The notes beneath the pieces are model-generated. The model was given only the letters and a program-made list of their open reading frames with translations. It was not told where the DNA came from and did not search any database. From NCBI GenBank assembly GCA_963665835.2, contig CAXXWJ010000001.1, positions 1,725,032-1,789,031 on the forward strand: 64,000 nt of DNA, read 5' to 3'. The stretch's first letter is position 1. The number at the start of each line of letters is the position of its first letter. Made by a program: the position numbers and the translations under genes. Shown here piece by piece: positions 1,605 through 23,876 of this stretch. This DNA comes from Syntrophales bacterium (GTDB lineage Bacteria; Desulfobacterota; Syntrophia; Syntrophales; UBA2210).

Positions 1605-1620
1605 TAATATACCAACTTGG
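1605..1620. repeat. Left arm of a perfect 16-bp inverted repeat (TAATATACCAACTTGG), partner at 3073..3088
   Basis: Exact reverse complement of 3073..3088, read directly. The two arms bracket the ISNCY insertion plus ~120 bp of non-IS sequence. Confidence 0.9.
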
Positions 1621-1654
1621 CTCAAGTGGAATATTGCCACAAAATGCCAAGTGT

Positions 1655-1671
1655 CAAAAGTTCATTTTGCT
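1655..1671 (+). repeat. Left copy of the 16-17 bp direct repeat (CAAAAGTTCATTTTGC[T]) flanking the ISNCY element; putative target-site duplication
   Basis: Identical 17-mer at 2984..3000. It directly abuts both IS termini. Confidence 0.85.
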
Positions 1672-2983
1672 GTTAGCAACAAATAGATTTGTCCGGTTTT
1701 GTAGCAAATGAATTGTCCGCTTTGTACTGCTCTGAAAAGCTGCGGAAGTTGTAGGCTGGAGCAGCTTTTCAGAGGAAGTGGCGAGCGGCGGACTTACGCT
1801 GCCTTTTCCTTTCTCTTCTTGTTTTCTTTTAATTTTCCCTGTGCATCATAATCAGCCAATTTCCTCGGTCCGTGGAAAACGGACAGGGAGCCGTCTGTGT
1901 ACCGATGAACATGCACCTTTGCTCTGACATAATGGCATCTATAGAGATTTGATGGGATTTGCAGCGTTTTGCCTTCAAAGCTGACACAGTTATCGGCAGT
2001 TACTGTCCTCGGCAGCAGGTTGCATGAACTCAGCGTTGAATGCCGGCCTATAGACCTCAGCCAGATAACGGTTGGCAGCGTCCATTGTAGTGATTTTTTT
2101 CAGGGCCAGTTCTTTGGGAAGTCGACCTTGATGAGTGCTGAAGGGTCGTTCACTCCGTCCCCGTGCTTGAGGAGAGTAGGCAGCTATCATCTCAACCCCT
2201 AAATGCTTCATGGCACGACCAAACTGCGTAAGCTGCCCCTTACTTACTCTTCCACCGGTCTCAGGCGTATACCAGTAATGACTCCCACGATCGGTGTAGA
2301 GTGAACCGAACAGACCCCTTTGAAGAATCGTGTCACGCACCTCCTGAAAGCTGCTGGATGTGCCTTCTTCCTGAACAAAGAACATACTGTAGTGTTCGTT
2401 TGTCGCATCATCCATTGTAACGATCAGATCCCACTTCTTCCCCGGAACCCATTCATGGGTACTGCCGTCCTGATGCAACATCATCCCCGGCAATGGTGAA
2501 GGATCACGGCGTTTCCTGTGTGTGTCTTTCCTGGGAGCCTTGCTAACCAACCCTCTCGACTGTAGCGTGTTCTTGACCCAAGTGTAGCTTCTCCTCCCTC
2601 CGTCACGCTGGTACCATGAATAAAAATGCTTCACGTTCCAGCCCCGATACCGACCTTCATACTGCCGGGCAAGCGCCATAACTTCATCCACTGGTGCTCG
2701 ACGCGACGATGCCTGGGTTAATCGTTTGTCCAGCAATCCCTCCATACCGCTCTCCTCGTACCGATCAATGTAACGCCGGAACGTTCGGTCACATACTCCC
2801 AACATCCGCGCCGCTTCCTCCTGTGTTAATCGACCTTCCGTCCATACACCATAAGCCTCTTTAAATCGCATAATCCGGATCTCCTGTAGTATCTCTGTCC
2901 GTCTCATTGGTCACCTCCCGGTGCCTCATCCTAACCGGACAGATTACGTGCTACAACTCCGGACATATTACTTGCTCCTGACA
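1671..2983 (-). mobile_element. IS1202-like ISNCY-family insertion sequence, ~1.3 kb, internally deleted
   Basis: Imperfect terminal inverted repeats: 1671 TGTTAGCAACAAATAGATTTGTCCGGTTTTGTAGCAAATGAATTGTCCG versus the reverse complement of 2935..2983, TGTCAGGAGCAAGTAATATGTCCGGAGTTGTAGCACGTAATCTGTCCGG. Shared blocks are TGTCCGG..TTGTAGCA..TGTCCG. It encloses an rve-type transposase and is flanked by a 16-17 bp direct repeat. Confidence 0.8.
1794..2907 (-). pseudogene. ISNCY-family (HTH + rve integrase core) transposase, disrupted by an internal deletion/frameshift
   Basis: The 305-aa ORF (1990..2907) has an HTH (LTQEEAARMLGVCDRTFRRYIDRY) and a DDE core (LHQDGSTH, TMDDATN, LYTDRGSHY, ARGRSER). 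It stops at ..QPAAEDSNCR*. The family-typical C-terminus (RTVTADNCVSFEGKTLQIPSNLYRCHYVRAKVHVHRYTDGSLSVFHGPRKL..) continues in another frame down to the stop at 1794-1796. Confidence 0.75.
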
Positions 2984-3000
2984 CAAAAGTTCATTTTGCT
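2984..3000 (+). repeat. Right copy of the 16-17 bp direct repeat flanking the ISNCY element
   Basis: Identical to 1655..1671. Confidence 0.85.
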
Positions 3001-3072
3001 TGACATTTAAGCACTTTTCCCTTTGCATTCTTTTAAAAAAAGCGCGACACTCCCTGAGCAAACCGGAAAAAA

Positions 3073-3088
3073 CCAAGTTGGTATATTA
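3073..3088. repeat. Right arm of the 16-bp inverted repeat (CCAAGTTGGTATATTA)
   Basis: Exact reverse complement of 1605..1620. It is followed 3 nt later by GTTCTGC (3092..3098), then by the PHP-ATPase gene. Confidence 0.9.
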
Positions 3089-3116
3089 ATTGTTCTGCAG
3101 GGCCAAATTTAATTAA

Positions 3117-5261
3117 ATGAAAATCGACATACATTCTCATACCAAGAAATGCAAGTCAGGTGATGCACCCACAAGGGAAATTGCTCCTGATGATTTCTGC
3201 GAAACGCTTCAGTCCACTGAAGTAGGAATCATTGCGATCACCAATCATAATGTTTTCGATTTGGATCAATTTATAGAGATCGTGGACAGAATGGGTGATA
3301 ATGCCCAAGTTTGGCCGGGAGTAGAATTGGATGTCCAAGAGAATGGTGTGCGTGGACATTTGATAGTGATTGTCTCGCCCCAAGTGGCAAAAGAATTTTC
3401 CGAGAGCGTGGCTAAGATAACCGAAGGCTCCACTCCAGATAGCTTTAAGGGCACTATCGAGCAGGTTCTTGAAACATTCGATGAATTCAAGCCACTATAC
3501 GTGACACACTATAAGCAGAAGACGCCTAGCTTGTCTGATAAGGCACTTGAAAAGTTAATATCAGGGTCAGTGAATCCTGGACGAGTGATTAAGGAGGTAT
3601 CTAACGCGATTTCAGCAGGGATATACATTTCGCACGGTTACGCGTCAATCTACGGTTCCGACGTTCACGATTGGTCTACCTACGAAGAGCAAGCCAGTGG
3701 TCTGCCGGATCTCCGGCTTCCTATGGAGAGTTTTGACCATTTCTATTTACTGCTAGAGAAAGACCCAACAACTATTAATACCATATTAGACAAGAAGGTA
3801 GCAGAGGATCTTATTCTCACGCCATTTGAGGATTCCACTTTTTTAAAGCTCAAAGTTTTTAACGAAATCAACATCGTTTTTGGTCCGAAGGGAACAGGCA
3901 AATCCTGCATTCTTATGGCTATCGCAAAACATTATCGGGACTCCGGTATCGACGCAAATGTCTATGAATCGGCGAGCGACCGGCTTGATGAACTCTTTGA
4001 CACAAAAGGCCGAGATCTTTCTCTTAATCTCAATTCGCACGGAATAAATTATTGCAAAGATGAAATAGAAGCAATCAGAGAGGCATCCGAGGTCGGCGTC
4101 ACAAGCTTGTCTAAATACGAGATCTATTTTCGTATAAAATCTACAAATAAAAACGCGAAAAAAATTAAGCTCAAGGATATCGAGCCAGAAGAAGAAGGTG
4201 GCGCTAAGCGCGAATTCTTAGAATTTAATGAAGGTGTGACAAAAACGAGAGCATTCATTGAGTTCCTGCAAGAGCATCCGTCGGTAAAGAAGGAACTTAG
4301 TACGGAGGAAATCGAAGAGGTTACTCGTATTCTCTCAGGACTTCTTGAACGGATGGTTAATAGGGAGTGGGGTGGCTATTCTGGTTGGAAAGAAATCAAT
4401 TTATTGAATTCGGCCATTGAGAAATTTCGCACGGAGGTGGAACGAAAAACCGGATCGCCAGCCAAACCTATTACAACAGGATTTCGTGAGTATGCTCTTA
4501 ATCGGGTACGGATCGAAGCCAATGTCTCCGAAATCATTAAGAGTGTGGATACTAATATTCCAATACTTAAGGAGGCGGTGGGCAGTCTCGGGCCAAATAA
4601 AGGTGAATTGGAGTTACGGACGGAATTCAAATTCCAGGACGGTACAATTTCCGATGGGAGTCTCAATAAACTGAAGAATGTCAATAAAGGTCCGCAGAAA
4701 ACGTTTGCAAAGACAGTTCGGGAAATCCTCAAACATGCATATGAGGATGACCTTTTCCAGCACATAGCTGACCTCAACGTGATAGATGATGTTGAAAAAA
4801 TCGAAACCGTTTACGAACTGTTGCTCTTCAAGCGGTATTTCGCACTTAATGGACTACCTTATTCTCCATCAAGCGGCGAAGCTTCAATGGTTATGTTGCA
4901 AAAGGAACTGGAAACAGACAAGGAGGTTTACATTCTTGATGAACCGGAACGGAGCCTGGGTAACGAGTATATCAACGATGTGATCGTGCCTTTGATTAAG
5001 GAGCGTGCTCGTGCTGGAAAGAAAGTTATCATTTCGACCCATGATGCGAATATTGCAGTGCGTACACTTCCTTACAGCTCAGTATACCGCCTCCACGGAC
5101 CAGCCGGTTACACAACTTATATAGGAAACCCCTTCTCAAACAATCTAGTGAATCCGAATGATGAAGACGACTGGCTTGATTGGAAAAAGGTCAGCATGAA
5201 AACCCTTGAAGGTGGCGAAGAAGCATTTGGAGAGCGAGGAAAAATCTATGGAAACGGTTAA
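3117..5261 (+). CDS. PHP-domain phosphoesterase fused to an SMC/RecF-like ABC ATPase (Ppl-like candidate defence protein)
   Basis: 714 aa. The N-terminus has a full PHP metal-ligand series: DIHSHT, ITNHN, GVELD, RGHLIV, VTHY, GSDVHD. The ATPase part has Walker A GPKGTGKS (3882-3905), a long Lys/Glu-rich helical insert, ABC signature SPSSGEAS (4863-4886), Walker B VYILDEPE (4926-4949) and H-loop ISTHD. Confidence 0.8.
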   Translation: MKIDIHSHTKKCKSGDAPTREIAPDDFCETLQSTEVGIIAITNHNVFDLDQFIEIVDRMGDNAQVWPGVELDVQENGVRGHLIVIVSPQVAKEFSESVAKITEGSTPDSFKGTIEQVLETFDEFKPLYVTHYKQKTPSLSDKALEKLISGSVNPGRVIKEVSNAISAGIYISHGYASIYGSDVHDWSTYEEQASGLPDLRLPMESFDHFYLLLEKDPTTINTILDKKVAEDLILTPFEDSTFLKLKVFNEINIVFGPKGTGKSCILMAIAKHYRDSGIDANVYESASDRLDELFDTKGRDLSLNLNSHGINYCKDEIEAIREASEVGVTSLSKYEIYFRIKSTNKNAKKIKLKDIEPEEEGGAKREFLEFNEGVTKTRAFIEFLQEHPSVKKELSTEEIEEVTRILSGLLERMVNREWGGYSGWKEINLLNSAIEKFRTEVERKTGSPAKPITTGFREYALNRVRIEANVSEIIKSVDTNIPILKEAVGSLGPNKGELELRTEFKFQDGTISDGSLNKLKNVNKGPQKTFAKTVREILKHAYEDDLFQHIADLNVIDDVEKIETVYELLLFKRYFALNGLPYSPSSGEASMVMLQKELETDKEVYILDEPERSLGNEYINDVIVPLIKERARAGKKVIISTHDANIAVRTLPYSSVYRLHGPAGYTTYIGNPFSNNLVNPNDEDDWLDWKKVSMKTLEGGEEAFGERGKIYGNG

Positions 5262-5538
5262 AGCGACAGTTGTGGAGCTTGAAAAAAAACACTTCATCAA
5301 GATCGAATCCGGGGACGAAGAGATTAAGATCCCTATTTCTGAGGACAAACCGAATGAGGTCAAAAGTGCCTTCAATAAGCTGATCGTTAGAATCAAAGAA
5401 GGAGAGTTTGAGATTAAGTTGGAGGATATTGGCCAGGATCTGTTCTCTCAGGTAGCCTCAGAGTATGTCACTCAACTAAACCGTGAAATTCAGGAGGTAC
5501 GTGGCGAAATGGAGGACTATGGCTTGGTGGAAGATTAA
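5248..5538 (+). CDS. Small acidic hypothetical protein (96 aa), translationally coupled to the PHP-ATPase
   Basis: ATG at 5248 is preceded by GGAGAGCGAGGA and lies 14 nt inside the end of the upstream gene. Glu/Asp/Lys-rich, no TM segment, no motif recognised. The longer track ORF starts at 5206. Confidence 0.55.
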   Translation: METVKATVVELEKKHFIKIESGDEEIKIPISEDKPNEVKSAFNKLIVRIKEGEFEIKLEDIGQDLFSQVASEYVTQLNREIQEVRGEMEDYGLVED

Positions 5539-5599
5539 ATCCGCTCTCTAAAATTACTACTAGATACCGCCTGTCAATTAACAAAAATGAACAGCAATT

Positions 5600-5691
5600 G
5601 CAGAAGCAGGCGGTTCACTTGACGCCGTGGAGTGCGGCGGCGCTGACGCGGCAAGGTTTGGTGGCGGCGCAAGTGACTTTGGTCGTTAACC
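5600..5691 (+). repeat. attC-like site A (degenerate R'' box)
   Basis: R''-position box GCAGAAG (5600-5606), then a 6-nt spacer. L'' GTTCACTTGACGC (5613-5625) pairs with L' GCGCAAGTGAC (5667-5677), leaving two extrahelical bases. A 7-nt spacer precedes R' GTTAACC (5685-5691). The conserved AAC reads AAG. Confidence 0.6.
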
Positions 5692-5735: not shown

Positions 5736-6110
5736 ATGAAAAAAAGGCTCTTATCCTGGTGGCTTGCCAACGTGCCTATTAGTTTTATTCTTTATTTTTT
5801 TTCATCAATATTATTTTATGAATTCTATCGGATTGGCATCGTAGCAGACCCGAAAGAGGTAGAAATGTACTATTTCGGCGGCGAAGCAATGATTGGACGT
5901 GGGGGGTGGAAATATGCTTCAGCAGGCGCTTACTCCTTATCTACTTTTGTTGGGTCCTTTTTATATTTATTAGCAGCTACAGGCTTTTTAGTTGCATATA
6001 AAAAACGGTCAAAATTATTTGTTGGCCTTGCAATTAGTATTTTACTAATGTCGTACTGTTCAGAAAAGTTGTTGAACTTGTGGTTCAAATATAAATATGG
6101 CCTTGGTTAA
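5736..6110 (+). CDS. Cassette-encoded small membrane protein (124 aa, ~4 predicted TM helices), unknown function
   Basis: Track ORF 5598..6110 reads through attC A, so the start was moved to MKKRLLSWW (5736; 5697 is also possible). Hydrophobic segments are visible. The stop TAA lies inside R'' GGTTAAC of attC B. Confidence 0.55.
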   Translation: MKKRLLSWWLANVPISFILYFFSSILFYEFYRIGIVADPKEVEMYYFGGEAMIGRGGWKYASAGAYSLSTFVGSFLYLLAATGFLVAYKKRSKLFVGLAISILLMSYCSEKLLNLWFKYKYGLG

Positions 6111-6170
6111 CCCGGCGCTAAAGCTGATAGCAGCCACAGGGGATGCTCCGCCTTAGCTGTAACGTTAGCG
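6105..6170 (+). repeat. attC-like site B (66 bp, canonical layout)
   Basis: Layout in order: R'' GGTTAAC, 5-nt spacer CCGGC, L'' GCTAAAG, central region, L' CTTAGC (one unpaired base relative to L''), 6-nt spacer TGTAAC, R' GTTAGCG (6164-6170). Confidence 0.75.
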
Positions 6171-6193: not shown

Positions 6194-6460
6194 ATGAAAC
6201 TAAATGTCAGAGCGTTTTCACTTACCTGCGGAATAGTTTGGGGCGTTGTTGTTTTTTTGTTGACCTGGTGGATAATCGCTTTTGATGGAGCAACTGGTGA
6301 TCCTACTTTCATTGGACGTCTGTATCGGGGGTTTACTATATCTCCAGTCGGCAGTTTCATTGGATTTATCTGGGCGTTTGTGGATGGTTTGATAGTAGGG
6401 GCAATTTTCGCTTGGTTCTATAATCTAATATCTAATCGCTTTTGGAAGACAGAATCATAA
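6194..6460 (+). CDS. Cassette-encoded small membrane protein (88 aa, 2 TM), unknown function
   Basis: GGGAGG sits 7 nt before the ATG. Two hydrophobic helices (GIVWGVVVFLLTWWIIAF and FIGFIWAFVDGLIVGAIFAWFY). It lies between attC B and attC C. Confidence 0.65.
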   Translation: MKLNVRAFSLTCGIVWGVVVFLLTWWIIAFDGATGDPTFIGRLYRGFTISPVGSFIGFIWAFVDGLIVGAIFAWFYNLISNRFWKTES

Positions 6461-6469
6461 ATCAGTTTC

Positions 6470-6552
6470 GGCTAACCATCCGGGAGCGGCTTTACGCATA
6501 AGTTTTTGGTTCGCGAACTGCCGAGAGCTGCGCCTCACCCAGAACGTTATGA
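6470..6552 (+). repeat. attC-like site C (83 bp)
   Basis: R'' GGCTAAC (6470-6476), 5-nt spacer, GGGAGCGGC pairing with GCGCCTCACCC (with bulges), then R' GTTATGA (6546-6552). Confidence 0.7.
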
Positions 6553-6568
6553 GCAAGGACGAAAACCA

Positions 6569-6914
6569 ATGGCATTTAGAGATGTTGAACTTCAGAAAGC
6601 AAAAAAGATAGTAGGCAGACTTTGTTAAGAAAAAAACGCCAACCGAACTTAAGGATCAATTGCTGGTTCAATATGAAATAGAAAAGCAAAACATCATTGT
6701 TTATGAGGTGTGTCCTGCTTGGAAAAATCCAACTGAATTCGCCAGAATGCCGTTGGCTAATTTGACTTATGTGAAAAGCTAAAATATATGGAAAATGTAT
6801 TGGAAAAGGGCAAATGGAACATGGGTTATATATGGGCCCAAAGGTACATCGAAGGATTTAGGGATTCTTGTGAAGGAAATTGAAAAATATGCTTATGGCT
6901 GCTTCTTTGGATAA
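6569..6914 (+). pseudogene. DUF3024-like cassette gene, inactivated
   Basis: Reads MAFRDVELQKAKKIVGRLC*, then shifts frame in an A-run to ..KTPTELKDQLLVQYEIEKQNIIVYEVCPAWKNPTEFARMPLANLTYVKS*NIWKMYWKRANGTWVIYGPKG..YAYGCFFG*. The pattern resembles the DUF3024 family common in integron cassettes (from memory). There are two premature stops plus one frameshift. Confidence 0.6.
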
Positions 6915-6921
6915 AATGGAC

Positions 6922-6981
6922 TCATAACACGTCACTAGTGCGGATGCGATATGGCCGCACCGCTTTTCGCTGACGTTGAAC
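6922..6981 (+). repeat. attC-like site D (60 bp)
   Basis: R'' TCATAAC (6922-6928). Stems ACGTCA/TGACGT and GTGCGG/CCGCAC. R' GTTGAAC (6975-6981), which fits GTTRRRY. Confidence 0.7.
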
Positions 6982-22187: not shown

Positions 22188-23792
22188 CTATTCCCCGTTT
22201 ATCGTTGCGGTCTCATCTTCAAGATACTCGTCGAATCCCATCATCCTGTCTATGGCTCCCGAAGGCGTTATCTCAACGACCCTGTTCGCCACCGTTGAGG
22301 CAAACTCGCGATCGCGGGAGGAAAAGAGAATAACCTCCGGGAAGGCGATCAGTCCATTGTTCAATGCTATTATTGATTCCATATCCAGGTGGTCGGTCGG
22401 TTCGTCAAGAATGAGGACGTTGGCGCCGGAGAGCATGGTCTTGGCTAGCATGCAGCGGACACGCTCACCTCCGGACAGGACCGAGATCTTTTTCATCGCC
22501 TCTTCTCCCGAGAATAGCATTTTCCCGAGAAATCCTCTGGCAAAGCTCTCATTCCCGGCCTCTATGGAGAATTGGGCGAGCCATTCCAGGAGGTTCAGGT
22601 CCTTATGGAAGTAGCTGCTGTTATCCTTGGGGAAATAGGAGGCGCTGATGGTAACGCCCCAGAGGACGCTTCCACTGTCCGGTTCAATTTCTCCGGCCAG
22701 GATCTGAAAAAGGGTGGTTTTGGCCAGACTGTCCCCTCCGACAAAGGCAATCTTGTCTCGCTTGTTGACGGTCAGGTTGATGTTGTTCAGGATGGGAGTC
22801 CCGTTTATTTCCTTAGATATTCCCTTTAGTTCCAAGATTATATCACCGCAAGGTCGCTCGGGTTTGAAGACGATGAAGGGGTATTTCCTTGAGGAAATTG
22901 GCATATCATCGATGGTAAGTTTTTCCAGTAGCTTTTTCCTGGACGTTGCCTGCTTCGCCTTCGAGGCATTGGAGCTGAATCGCTGGATGAATTCTTTCAG
23001 CTCGTTGGCCTTGTTGGTTATCTTTTTGTTTTCGTTCTCTCTTTGCTTCAGGTGCAGCTGGCTCGCCTGGTACCAGAAATCGTAGTTGCCAACGTATACC
23101 TGTATAAGTCCGAAATCTATGTCTGCCACATGAGTACAGACCTGGTTTAGAAAGCGACGGTCGTGAGAGACGATGATGACAGTGTTGTCGAAGCGGGATA
23201 GAAACTCCTCAAGCCAGGCTATGGACTTGATGTCCAGATGGTTGGTCGGCTCATCCAGGAGGAGGATGTCCGGGTTGCCAAATAGCGCCTTGGCTAGAAG
23301 GACCCTGACTTTATCGTTTCCATCAAGCTCCTTCATTTTTTTCTCCCGCAGTTCCTCCGGTATGCCGAGGCCGCTTAAAAGTGTCGCTGCCTCAGATTCT
23401 GCCTCATAGCCGTTAAGCTCACCAAATTCACCTTCCAGTTCGGCACAGCGTATGCCGTCTTCCTCTGAAAACTCGGTTTTGGCGTAGATCGCCGTCCGCT
23501 CAACCATTAACTCGTAAAGCCGTTCATGTCCCATTATGACTGTGTTCGATACGGTTTCTTCGTCAAAGGCAAACTGGTTCTGGCTGAGAACTGCAATCCG
23601 TTCCCCTGAACTGACGGAAATAGTGCCGCGGTCCGGCTCGATCTCGCCTGCTAGTATCTTCAGGAAGGTGGACTTACCCGAGCCGTTTGCCCCTATTAAT
23701 CCATAGCAATTTCCGGGGGTGAATTTTATGTTGACGTCTTTGAAGATGACCCTCTTGCCATATGAGAGGGCGATATTGGATGCGTTAATCAT
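22188..23792 (-). CDS. ABC-F family ATPase (YbiT-like)
   Basis: Two ABC cassettes (GANGSGKST..LLLDEPTNHLD; second with LSGGERVR..LILDEPTDHLD) joined by a charged linker. Start set at MINASNIALSYG, because the longer TTG start at 23846 abuts the csp terminator. Confidence 0.88.
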   Translation of the reverse strand: MINASNIALSYGKRVIFKDVNIKFTPGNCYGLIGANGSGKSTFLKILAGEIEPDRGTISVSSGERIAVLSQNQFAFDEETVSNTVIMGHERLYELMVERTAIYAKTEFSEEDGIRCAELEGEFGELNGYEAESEAATLLSGLGIPEELREKKMKELDGNDKVRVLLAKALFGNPDILLLDEPTNHLDIKSIAWLEEFLSRFDNTVIIVSHDRRFLNQVCTHVADIDFGLIQVYVGNYDFWYQASQLHLKQRENENKKITNKANELKEFIQRFSSNASKAKQATSRKKLLEKLTIDDMPISSRKYPFIVFKPERPCGDIILELKGISKEINGTPILNNINLTVNKRDKIAFVGGDSLAKTTLFQILAGEIEPDSGSVLWGVTISASYFPKDNSSYFHKDLNLLEWLAQFSIEAGNESFARGFLGKMLFSGEEAMKKISVLSGGERVRCMLAKTMLSGANVLILDEPTDHLDMESIIALNNGLIAFPEVILFSSRDREFASTVANRVVEITPSGAIDRMMGFDEYLEDETATINGE

Positions 23793-23845
23793 GTTTTGAT
23801 ACCTGCGGTCTGGGTGTTTTTCTTTTTTTATTGCTGTTTTCGGCA

Positions 23846-23876
23846 ATAAAAAAGCCCCCCCTGCAGGGGAGGCTTT
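23846..23876 (-). terminator. Intrinsic terminator downstream of csp
   Basis: On the minus strand, AAGCCTCCCCTGCAGGGGGGCTT is followed by TTTTTATT. Confidence 0.7.

Follow-up and report, generated by a model that had tools for sequence, protein, structure and literature searches.

Near the left end of the window, by which we mean the whole stretch of 64,000 nucleotides analysed here (Syntrophales bacterium, GenBank assembly GCA_963665835.2, contig CAXXWJ010000001.1, positions 1,725,032 to 1,789,031), lies a two-gene unit that a preliminary description of the sequence had taken for an unusually large integron cassette with a damaged recombination site. Gene 1 (3117..5261, + strand) encodes a protein of 714 aa that joins a PHP-type metal phosphoesterase domain at the N-terminus to an AriA-like ABC ATPase with a long helical insert. 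Gene 2 (5248..5538, + strand) encodes a protein of 96 aa, and its start overlaps the stop of gene 1. The unit had been introduced as a PHP-ATPase pair; two genes are indeed present in the cassette, but PHP and ATPase are not encoded separately, both being part of one fused 714-aa open reading frame (ORF) that stands beside the 96-aa ORF. In its integrated linear form the cassette (gene cassette A, 3093..5685, + strand) measures 2,593 bp; it opens with the TT of the start box and closes with the G of G|TTAACC, and these bounds are the positions where similarity to relatives starts and stops. Its leader is short and promoterless. In integrons, the bottom strand of an attC site folds into a hairpin that is marked for the integrase by an R box, an L box and two extrahelical bases. 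The integron integrase cuts the bottom-strand AAC between A and C, which corresponds to G|TT on the top strand, and exchanges one strand with attI or with another attC.

When the positions were re-read in the window, every sequence feature named in the preliminary description was found where it had been placed. The start box GTTCTGC (3092-3098, + strand) lies 19 nt ahead of the gene 1 ATG at 3117. It represents an R' box, G|TTCTGC, whose G is the final base of a lost upstream site and whose TTCTGC opens the cassette with its first six bases; the related loci L001, L002, L011-13, L016, L022 and L023-26 share this box together with the leader that follows it. At the other end, attC A (5600..5691, + strand, 92 nt) consists of the R'' box GCAGAAG (5600-5606), a 5' spacer of 6 nt (5607-5612), the L'' arm GTTCACTTGACGCCG (5613-5627), the L' arm CGGCGCAAGTGAC (5665-5677), a 3' spacer of 7 nt (5678-5684) and the R' box GTTAACC (5685-5691), of which the final six bases belong to the next cassette. 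The two L arms pair in a helix of 13 bp that leaves T5615 (or T5614) and A5622 unpaired on the L'' arm, so that the described pairing with two bulged bases, beginning 6 nt after the box in the R'' position, holds at the level of single coordinates.

Of the two conserved triplets of attC A, the GTT of R' is present and the AAC of R'' is replaced. The R'' box matches the reverse complement of GTTCTGC at 6/7 positions, and the lone mismatch, a G at position 5606 (+ strand), converts AAC to AAG as had been claimed. Every relative with a recognisable R'' box has C at this position, and the change is confined to the window among these relatives. Complementarity between the start box and the cassette's own R'' is accordingly 6/7 in the window and 7/7 in L001, L002, L011-13, L016 and L022. 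By this comparison, AAC is the triplet that the ancestral cassette kept in R'' and that the window copy lost. The motif AATTAAC at 5576-5582 was considered as an alternative R'' and rejected, because relatives conserve it as part of the cassette, 18 nt upstream of their true R''.

For comparison with the window, 26 loci were fetched (L001-L026). The cassette recurs in at least seven loci of other genomes and metagenomes, each with different flanks, and the protein identities are 82-92%. In every relative of at least 84% identity whose flanks are present, the start box is followed by the same AGG...ATG leader and the DNA before its G is unrelated. The box reads GTTCTAC in L014, GTTCCGC in L015 and GTTCTGC in the other start-box relatives (L001, L002, L011/12, L013, L016, L022 and L023-26), and in this set (L001, L002, L011-16, L022-26) the cassette has at least seven unrelated neighbours upstream and at least six different ones downstream. 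The DNA upstream of the cassette is plainly the attC of another cassette in L011/12, L013 and L016, and weaker or eye-read candidates for such a site are found in L014, L015 and L022. The downstream attC of the start-box relatives opens with GCAGAAC (AGCGAAC in L023-26) and closes with GTCG|TT; excepted are L014, which has no AAC at the expected R'' place, and L016, in which the 3' end of the attC is unclear. Relatives and window cease to be similar at the G|TT crossover on either side, and GTCG is continued by seven different sequences (TTAACC, TTAGCC, TTCTCT, TTAGGG, TTCGGT, TTGAAT and TTAGGT).

Different arrays, an integrative and conjugative element (ICE) and plasmid-like DNA thus share the unit, each time bounded by the same G|TT points, and for this reason we conclude that it has moved many times. 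Judged from these alignments, shared boundaries amid changing flanks are the signature of a cassette that was excised and inserted repeatedly. The preliminary description had proposed that the module entered the locus as an integron cassette and that the same unit should be sought next to different cassettes in genomes and metagenomes. Such loci exist, with junctions exactly at G|TT, and the proposal that window positions 3093-5685 represent a true integron gene cassette is strongly supported by the shared bounds. The 6/7 box match of the window is 7/7 in most close relatives. GTT/AAC boxes are present in close relatives and absent in those of at most 76% identity; as the relatives of 67-76% identity (L003/17, L004, L006-9, L018, L019) are without boxes, the gene pair also exists outside integrons.

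Several of these loci deserve mention in their own right. In L014, an attC at about 5025-5110 has the L'' arm GCACTTGGACC, the L' arm GGTCAAGTGC and the R' box GTTCGTC; the expected R'' place reads GTAATGT or TAATGTC, though the start box is GTTCTAC, and L014 may be a second copy with a degenerate R''. In L002, GCAGAAC-N13-GTTCTGC (5947-5982) stands directly ahead of the cassette, a perfect 7-nt inverted pair identical to the cassette's own R'' and R' boxes that could either be what is left of the attC of a former tandem copy, now collapsed, or mark a junction at a secondary site. Cassettes are known to insert at genomic sites other than att as well (10.1101/2022.09.11.507474), which may account for L001 and L002, neither of which has an attC ahead of the cassette. 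The 76% relatives L003 and, identically, L017 lie beside an ordinary tyrosine recombinase and have GTTCTCC before the gene pair and GAAGAAC-TGGCC-GTTGTCC after it (L003 8470-8500 and 5968-5975), an arrangement that looks like an attC minus both L arms and hence a fossil cassette. The attC preceding the cassette in L016 (58-180) is the exact reverse complement of L020 2263-2385, about 0.8 kb downstream of the cassette there, which suggests an inversion or rearrangement within an array. Finally, in L022 (1-22145) an 85% relative and the one small cassette ahead of it are embedded among the transfer genes of an ICE, with a DtrJ-like gene on one side and the RAQPRD gene on the other.

The relatives also show that attC A is maintained as a structure. 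Three attC versions occur on the one cassette, with lengths of 58 nt (L015 3874-3931, also L022 and L023), 91-92 nt (the window, L002 8484-8574 with 91 nt, and L013) and 124 nt (L001 8484-8607, also L011). They have R'', the two extrahelical bases and the GTCGTT end in common and differ in the terminal loop. The two unpaired L'' bases are 6 bp apart and occupy the same places in all three versions, and the 6-bp helix between them reads CAGTGG, CACTTG or CACCTG with matching changes on L'. In the alignment of the attC versions (A2), 96% of the cells are paired and 5/10 L-helix pairs changed on both sides; 0/500 shuffles reach the observed covariation score, and shifting the partner by 1-3 columns destroys the pairing. 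The sole unpaired R-box cell of this alignment is the window's G7.G118 (pair 7-118). Besides, attC A is about 90% identical to L002 and L013, compared with 68-69% in the adjacent non-coding spacer and 69-72% at third codon positions. That attC A folds as an attC, as had been proposed, is borne out by an L helix maintained through compensatory changes, and the pattern of substitutions identifies attC A as a real, constrained structure. The three versions on one cassette provide a clean natural case in which structure rather than sequence is conserved in attC.

The window taken by itself is less telling, and one might argue that boxes and hairpin are coincidental and that the unit is ordinary chromosomal DNA beside a three-cassette array. 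GTTCTGC occurs 16 times on both strands of the window where 6.15 occurrences are expected, and the chance of finding it at least once on the + strand of the 210-nt gap upstream of gene 1 is about 1-3%. The folding energy of attC A is no better than that of shuffled sequences (z -0.9 and -1.1), a non-significant result. A strict descriptor (13-bp stem, two single bulges on the 5' arm, GTT within 3-8 nt) found 3 loci in the window, compared with 7 raw matches summed over 20 shuffles and present in just 3 of them. Rfam gave no match for attC A. A covariance model built from the relatives' sites of the PHP cassette with the window left out (R1) scored attC A with 66 bits (E 5e-16) and flagged the same R-box pair as non-standard ('v'); the model does not detect attC B-D of the downstream cassettes and therefore measures homology rather than general attC membership. 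From the window alone, chance is not excluded. This doubt is removed by the comparative evidence from relatives: identical boundaries in at least nine independent contexts and compensatory changes in the attC helix rule out a coincidence, and the explanation, which we rate as negligible, is already refuted by the comparative data. Other approaches to scoring the sites were abandoned. Energy-based attC scans of the window were non-specific, with many coding regions scoring like real sites; a scan with a structural filter was helpful in related loci and missed the window sites A, C and D; and a general attC covariance model from 10 heterogeneous sites was not built, the MAFFT alignment (A1) having misaligned the 3' arms.

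Downstream of attC A the array continues with three further cassettes. The site attC B (6105..6170, + strand; R'' GGTTAAC, R' GTTAGCG) closes a 479-bp cassette with a 123-aa ORF (5739-6110). It is followed by attC C (6470..6552, + strand; R'' GGCTAAC, R' GTTATGA), which closes a 382-bp cassette with a gene for an 88-aa holin_4-family protein (6194-6460), and by attC D (6922..6981, + strand; R'' TCATAAC, R' GTTGAAC), the final site of the array, at the end of a 429-bp cassette (6553-6981). The chained relationship of boxes that had been reported for the three downstream cassettes is real: R' of A (GTTAACC) and R'' of B (GGTTAAC) match at 7/7 positions, R' of B (GTTAGCG) and R'' of C (GGCTAAC) at 6/7, and R' of C (GTTATGA) and R'' of D (TCATAAC) at 7/7. 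Downstream of site D, neither a GTTCAAC-type R'' nor a further attC was found. A tblastn search with IntI1 as probe revealed no integron integrase, neither in the window nor in the fetched loci, and the window thus lacks the intI that, with attI and Pc, would stand beside the array in a complete integron. With four attC sites and no intI in the window, the array is classed as a group of clustered attC sites without an integron integrase (CALIN). The PHP cassette of the window is hence the first of four cassettes in an integrase-less array on a Syntrophales-like chromosome; the threonyl-tRNA synthetase of the host is 89% identical to that of Syntrophales metagenome-assembled genomes. Like the published CALIN (Cury et al. 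2016, PMC4889954), the array has four attC sites on the same strand less than 4 kb apart, no intI nearby and insertion sequences (IS) at its edge; it is a member of this class with no essential difference, its first site having a non-canonical R''. Two of the small cassettes are of interest by themselves. The 88-aa product of cassette C scores 85.7 bits with the NCBIfam model 'bacteriophage holin' (holin_4; cut-off 70), making it a holin-like membrane protein encoded by an integron cassette. In cassette D, the sole long reading frame is interrupted by in-frame stop codons and the cassette appears to carry a decayed gene, while its attC still chains correctly.

On the upstream side, the array is bordered by an ISNCY-family insertion sequence (1605..3088, - strand) with perfect 16-nt terminal inverted repeats (1605-1620 and 3073-3088) and a match to the NCBIfam ISNCY transposase (3.4e-83). 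Its transposase ORF (1990-2907, - strand) is C-terminally truncated and covers profile positions 6-290 of 368. A second transposase gene, of the DDE type, lies at 82-1200, giving two IS elements upstream of the array. The right end of the ISNCY element sits 3 nt from the cassette crossover point, from which we conclude that an attC or attI once located upstream was cut off within its 3' spacer. No target-site duplication was seen for the element, and a simple insertion into an intact attC or attI can therefore not be shown. Inside both ends of the element, a perfect 17-nt repeat, CAAAAGTTCATTTTGCT, occurs at 1655-1671 and 2984-3000; the distances of CAAAAGTTCATTTTGCT to the left and right ends are 50 nt and about 89 nt, and its two copies are direct rather than inverted.

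These features bear on the mobility of the window copy, which the preliminary description had related to the R'' mutation. With IntI1, the sole role of the first base in the GTT/AAC triplet is docking of the exchanged strand, and this base must pair between the partners (Frumerie et al. 2010, PMC2811028). A mismatch at this position in one partner lowered IntI1 recombination 10^3-10^4-fold, and a non-complementary cleavage site caused a drop of about 370-fold (PMC2811028). With AAG in R'', the bottom strand of attC A carries CTT instead of the required GTT and faces an unchanged AA|C. The outcome is an internal C.C mismatch at the cleavage site and no G for the invading C of the partner; we infer a strong recombination defect from the G at 5606, and the IntI1 data predict a drop of about 1000-fold. 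The ISNCY element, which ends 3 nt upstream of the crossover, has in addition removed the upstream partner site, and the lack of intI within the window is a third reason for stranding. IS and missing intI thus add two independent causes of immobility to the R'' mutation, and all three together have very probably fixed this cassette copy in place. A dead attC A would also functionally fuse cassette B to the PHP cassette.

Alternatively, the cassette could be real and still mobile, AAG being a tolerated polymorphism or a sequencing error and an integrase from elsewhere excising the cassette alone or, via another site, together with cassette B. In principle, mobilisation in trans is open to CALIN cassettes (PMC4889954), sites in the genome that are non-canonical are used by integrases too (10.1101/2022.09.11.507474), second- and third-position triplet mutations in one partner are tolerated (PMC2811028), and the contig of about 1.8 Mb extends far beyond the 64 kb of the window. 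On the other hand, the changed base is the first triplet position, the sole one that needs to pair with the partner, and AAC is retained in every relative with a recognisable R'' box. Moreover, the upstream partner site is physically severed by the IS, and therefore no left-hand site exists for excision of the PHP cassette alone. We regard continued mobility as improbable. The window site resembles the mutants of Frumerie et al. 2010 (PMC2811028) in being a change, here a natural one, at the first GTT/AAC position, the docking position. The laboratory mutants differ in that both complementary positions of attCaadA7 were altered and IntI1 was used; in the window only the uncleaved side is altered (bottom-strand G to C), with an internal C.C mismatch. 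With its attC cleavage triplet naturally mutated at the first position and an IS-truncated partner site beside it, the window copy represents a ready-made test of cassette fixation.

The cargo of the cassette is well conserved. Both cassette genes are intact, and dN/dS values of 0.07-0.13 for gene 1 and 0.04-0.10 for gene 2 show that they evolve under purifying selection. At E up to 1e-5, the 714-aa protein matches more than 1,300 relatives, of which nearly all have the same length of 714 aa, and the family comprises more than 1,300 clusters at 90% identity. Relatives of 70-91% identity occur in Desulfobacterota, Verrucomicrobiota, Planctomycetota and Gammaproteobacteria, and homologues are found on Photobacterium, Clostridium and Staphylococcus plasmids and in ICEs. 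Across 81 diverse family members, the PHP residues D4, H6, H8, N43, H44, E70 and D182 are invariant and H131 is present in at least 90%; in the ATPase, G256 and K262 (Walker A), S585 and G587 (signature), D608 and E609 (Walker B) and H642 are invariant. Among the PADLOC profiles, gene 1 matched PDC-M49A first (2.2e-37), followed by AriA, HEC-02A, PtuA and GajA. The PDC-M49A match of gene 1 is limited to residues 2-156 and 577-711, about the N-terminal 150 and the C-terminal 135 residues; the same profile matched 30/33 family members. The PHP Pfam model matched 8/33 members, the Ppl hidden Markov model (HMM) 3/33 (3.2e-11) and the LmuB HMM 1/33; the window protein is without a Ppl match at E up to 1e-5. 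The family profile aligned with AriA in the PDB at positions 230-643 (E 1.7e-12). Gene 2 is kept beside gene 1 in all relatives, even in those outside integrons. LmuC HMM matches were weak and obtained for 11/17 of its homologues (best E 1.2e-4). A PADLOC profile search gave no M49B-type match for gene 2, and a PDB profile search with the 96-aa protein gave no match. A tblastn search of a phage collection was likewise negative.

The neighbourhood of the cassette in other loci is rich in defence genes. Directly upstream of the PHP cassette, L012 (197-2726) carries a 2.5-kb two-gene cassette encoding an XhoI-type restriction enzyme and a methyltransferase; bounded by the attC boxes TCGCAAC...GTTGTGT and ACACAAC...GTTCTGC, it adds another large two-gene defence cassette to this array. 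More generally, the arrays or islands of relatives include a methyltransferase-containing two-gene cassette that probably encodes a restriction-modification (R-M) system. Further defence neighbours are PDC-S54 (L013), a probable restriction endonuclease with a Dam-type methylase (L002) and GmrSD with SLATT (L023). On the L022 contig with its ICE, an AbiEii gene lies upstream and a Gabija-like pair of ATPase and UvrD helicase beyond the transfer genes. Given these associations and the domain logic, a defence role of the module is likely. The ABC ATPase could act as sensor or scaffold and the fused PHP domain as effector, and the module would most likely be an ATP-dependent nuclease-type system against phages or other mobile genetic elements (MGEs), related to PARIS AriA, Ppl and PDC-M49.

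A function unrelated to phages could be considered as well, for example in DNA repair or recombination, as an addiction-type module that stabilises the array or as a temperature-restriction protein like TrlF of Photorhabdus. The best NCBIfam match of gene 1 is indeed the TrlF-family AAA-like ATPase (1.8e-25), limited to the N-terminal part and below the family cut-off, and TrlF appears in the literature only from the Photorhabdus temperature-restriction operon. PHP domains also act in DNA proofreading and repair, and PDC-M49 was without mention in the literature searched. The ATPase, however, resembles defence ATPases of the AriA, PtuA and GajA type, its neighbours in other arrays and islands are largely defence genes, its homologues reside on plasmids and ICEs, and integron cassettes are known to be enriched in defence systems. 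We therefore rate a non-defence function as rather unlikely.

Taken together, it is likely that the unit is an integron cassette whose window copy is very probably stranded and whose cargo is most likely an anti-phage or anti-MGE module. Besides the folding energies of attC A and the restricted reach of model R1 described above, several points weigh against this interpretation. For AAG, the predicted effect draws on class 1 IntI1 and on double mutants rather than on a single bottom-strand G-to-C change, the G at 5606 could be an assembly or sequencing error, and intI may lie elsewhere in the genome outside the 64 kb. As to the cargo, PDC-M49 is a candidate system matched in part, the similarity to LmuC is weak (E 1e-4 or worse), and AlphaFold2 on a 34-sequence alignment (at least 70% identity) performed poorly (predicted local distance difference test, pLDDT, 54.6; predicted template modelling score, pTM, 0.31). 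A further-reaching idea has, in our judgement, about an even chance of being correct: the fused PHP/AriA-like ATPase and its LmuC-like 96-aa partner would form a new compact anti-phage or anti-plasmid system that spreads across phyla by integrons, ICEs and plasmids, and the window would hold such a cassette fixed in a chromosome by loss of the recombination site and insertion of an IS.

Compared with known systems, the module combines familiar elements. Like AriA of PARIS, it has an AAA_15/AAA_21-type ABC ATPase in which a large insert separates Walker A from the signature motif, and about 414 positions of the family profile align with AriA; unlike PARIS, it has no AriB partner with Toprim/DUF4435 and instead a 96-aa partner and a PHP enzyme domain fused at the N-terminus. 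Ppl has been described as a defence protein consisting of PHP and ABC ATPase and thus has the same domain make-up, whereas the window module adds a conserved second gene. With Lamassu, which consists of the SMC-like ATPase LmuB, LmuC and the effector LmuA, the observed links are the weak LmuC-like similarity of the partner protein and the LmuB HMM match of 1/33 family members.

That phage-defence cassettes occur in integrons, as mentioned in the preliminary description, is already published: Kieffer et al. 2025 reported bacteriophage resistance integron cassettes (BRiCs) of mobile integrons and Darracq et al. 2025 defence cassettes of sedentary chromosomal integrons. The published mobile-integron cassettes include an AriAB (PARIS) homologue and a two-gene Lamassu-like cassette, and both studies stress small, streamlined systems of at most two components. 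The window cassette is a clear example of this known kind of element. It is attC-bounded, promoterless and a compact defence-type module of at most two genes, and arrays with the PHP cassette hold other defence cassettes too. In contrast to the published cases from Vibrio or clinical plasmids, its host is an anaerobic Syntrophales-like member of the Desulfobacterota and its array a CALIN. The combination of PHP-ABC ATPase and 96-aa partner is not among the families in the two preprints, the defence role being proposed here from sequence, and with 2.6 kb the cassette is above their streamlined norm. Our findings would add anaerobic sediment lineages to Vibrio and clinical plasmids as carriers of integron cassettes with defence genes and provide a defined, widespread candidate defence module with exact boundaries for cloning.

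The size of the cassette had rightly been called unusual in view of its neighbours in the array with 479, 382 and 429 bp; it is not unique, the R-M cassette in L012 measuring 2.5 kb. In 2016, the largest known cassettes had about 2 kb (Cury et al. 2016, PMC4889954). Published work on defence cassettes found cassette size to correlate negatively with recombination and a 4-kb cassette to be immobile. The PHP cassette is large and yet, as its many contexts indicate, has clearly moved many times, and two-gene cassettes of 2.5-2.6 kb do circulate, above the size quoted in 2016.

Far from the array, the window contains an Rfam match to the cspA thermoregulator (RF01766, 23847-24174, - strand) with 97 bits, above the gathering score of 78. 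The cspA thermoregulator family is associated with enterobacterial cspA leaders. In the window, the element lies directly upstream of a 552-aa ORF (22188-23846, - strand), and both the host and the downstream gene are unexpected for this family.

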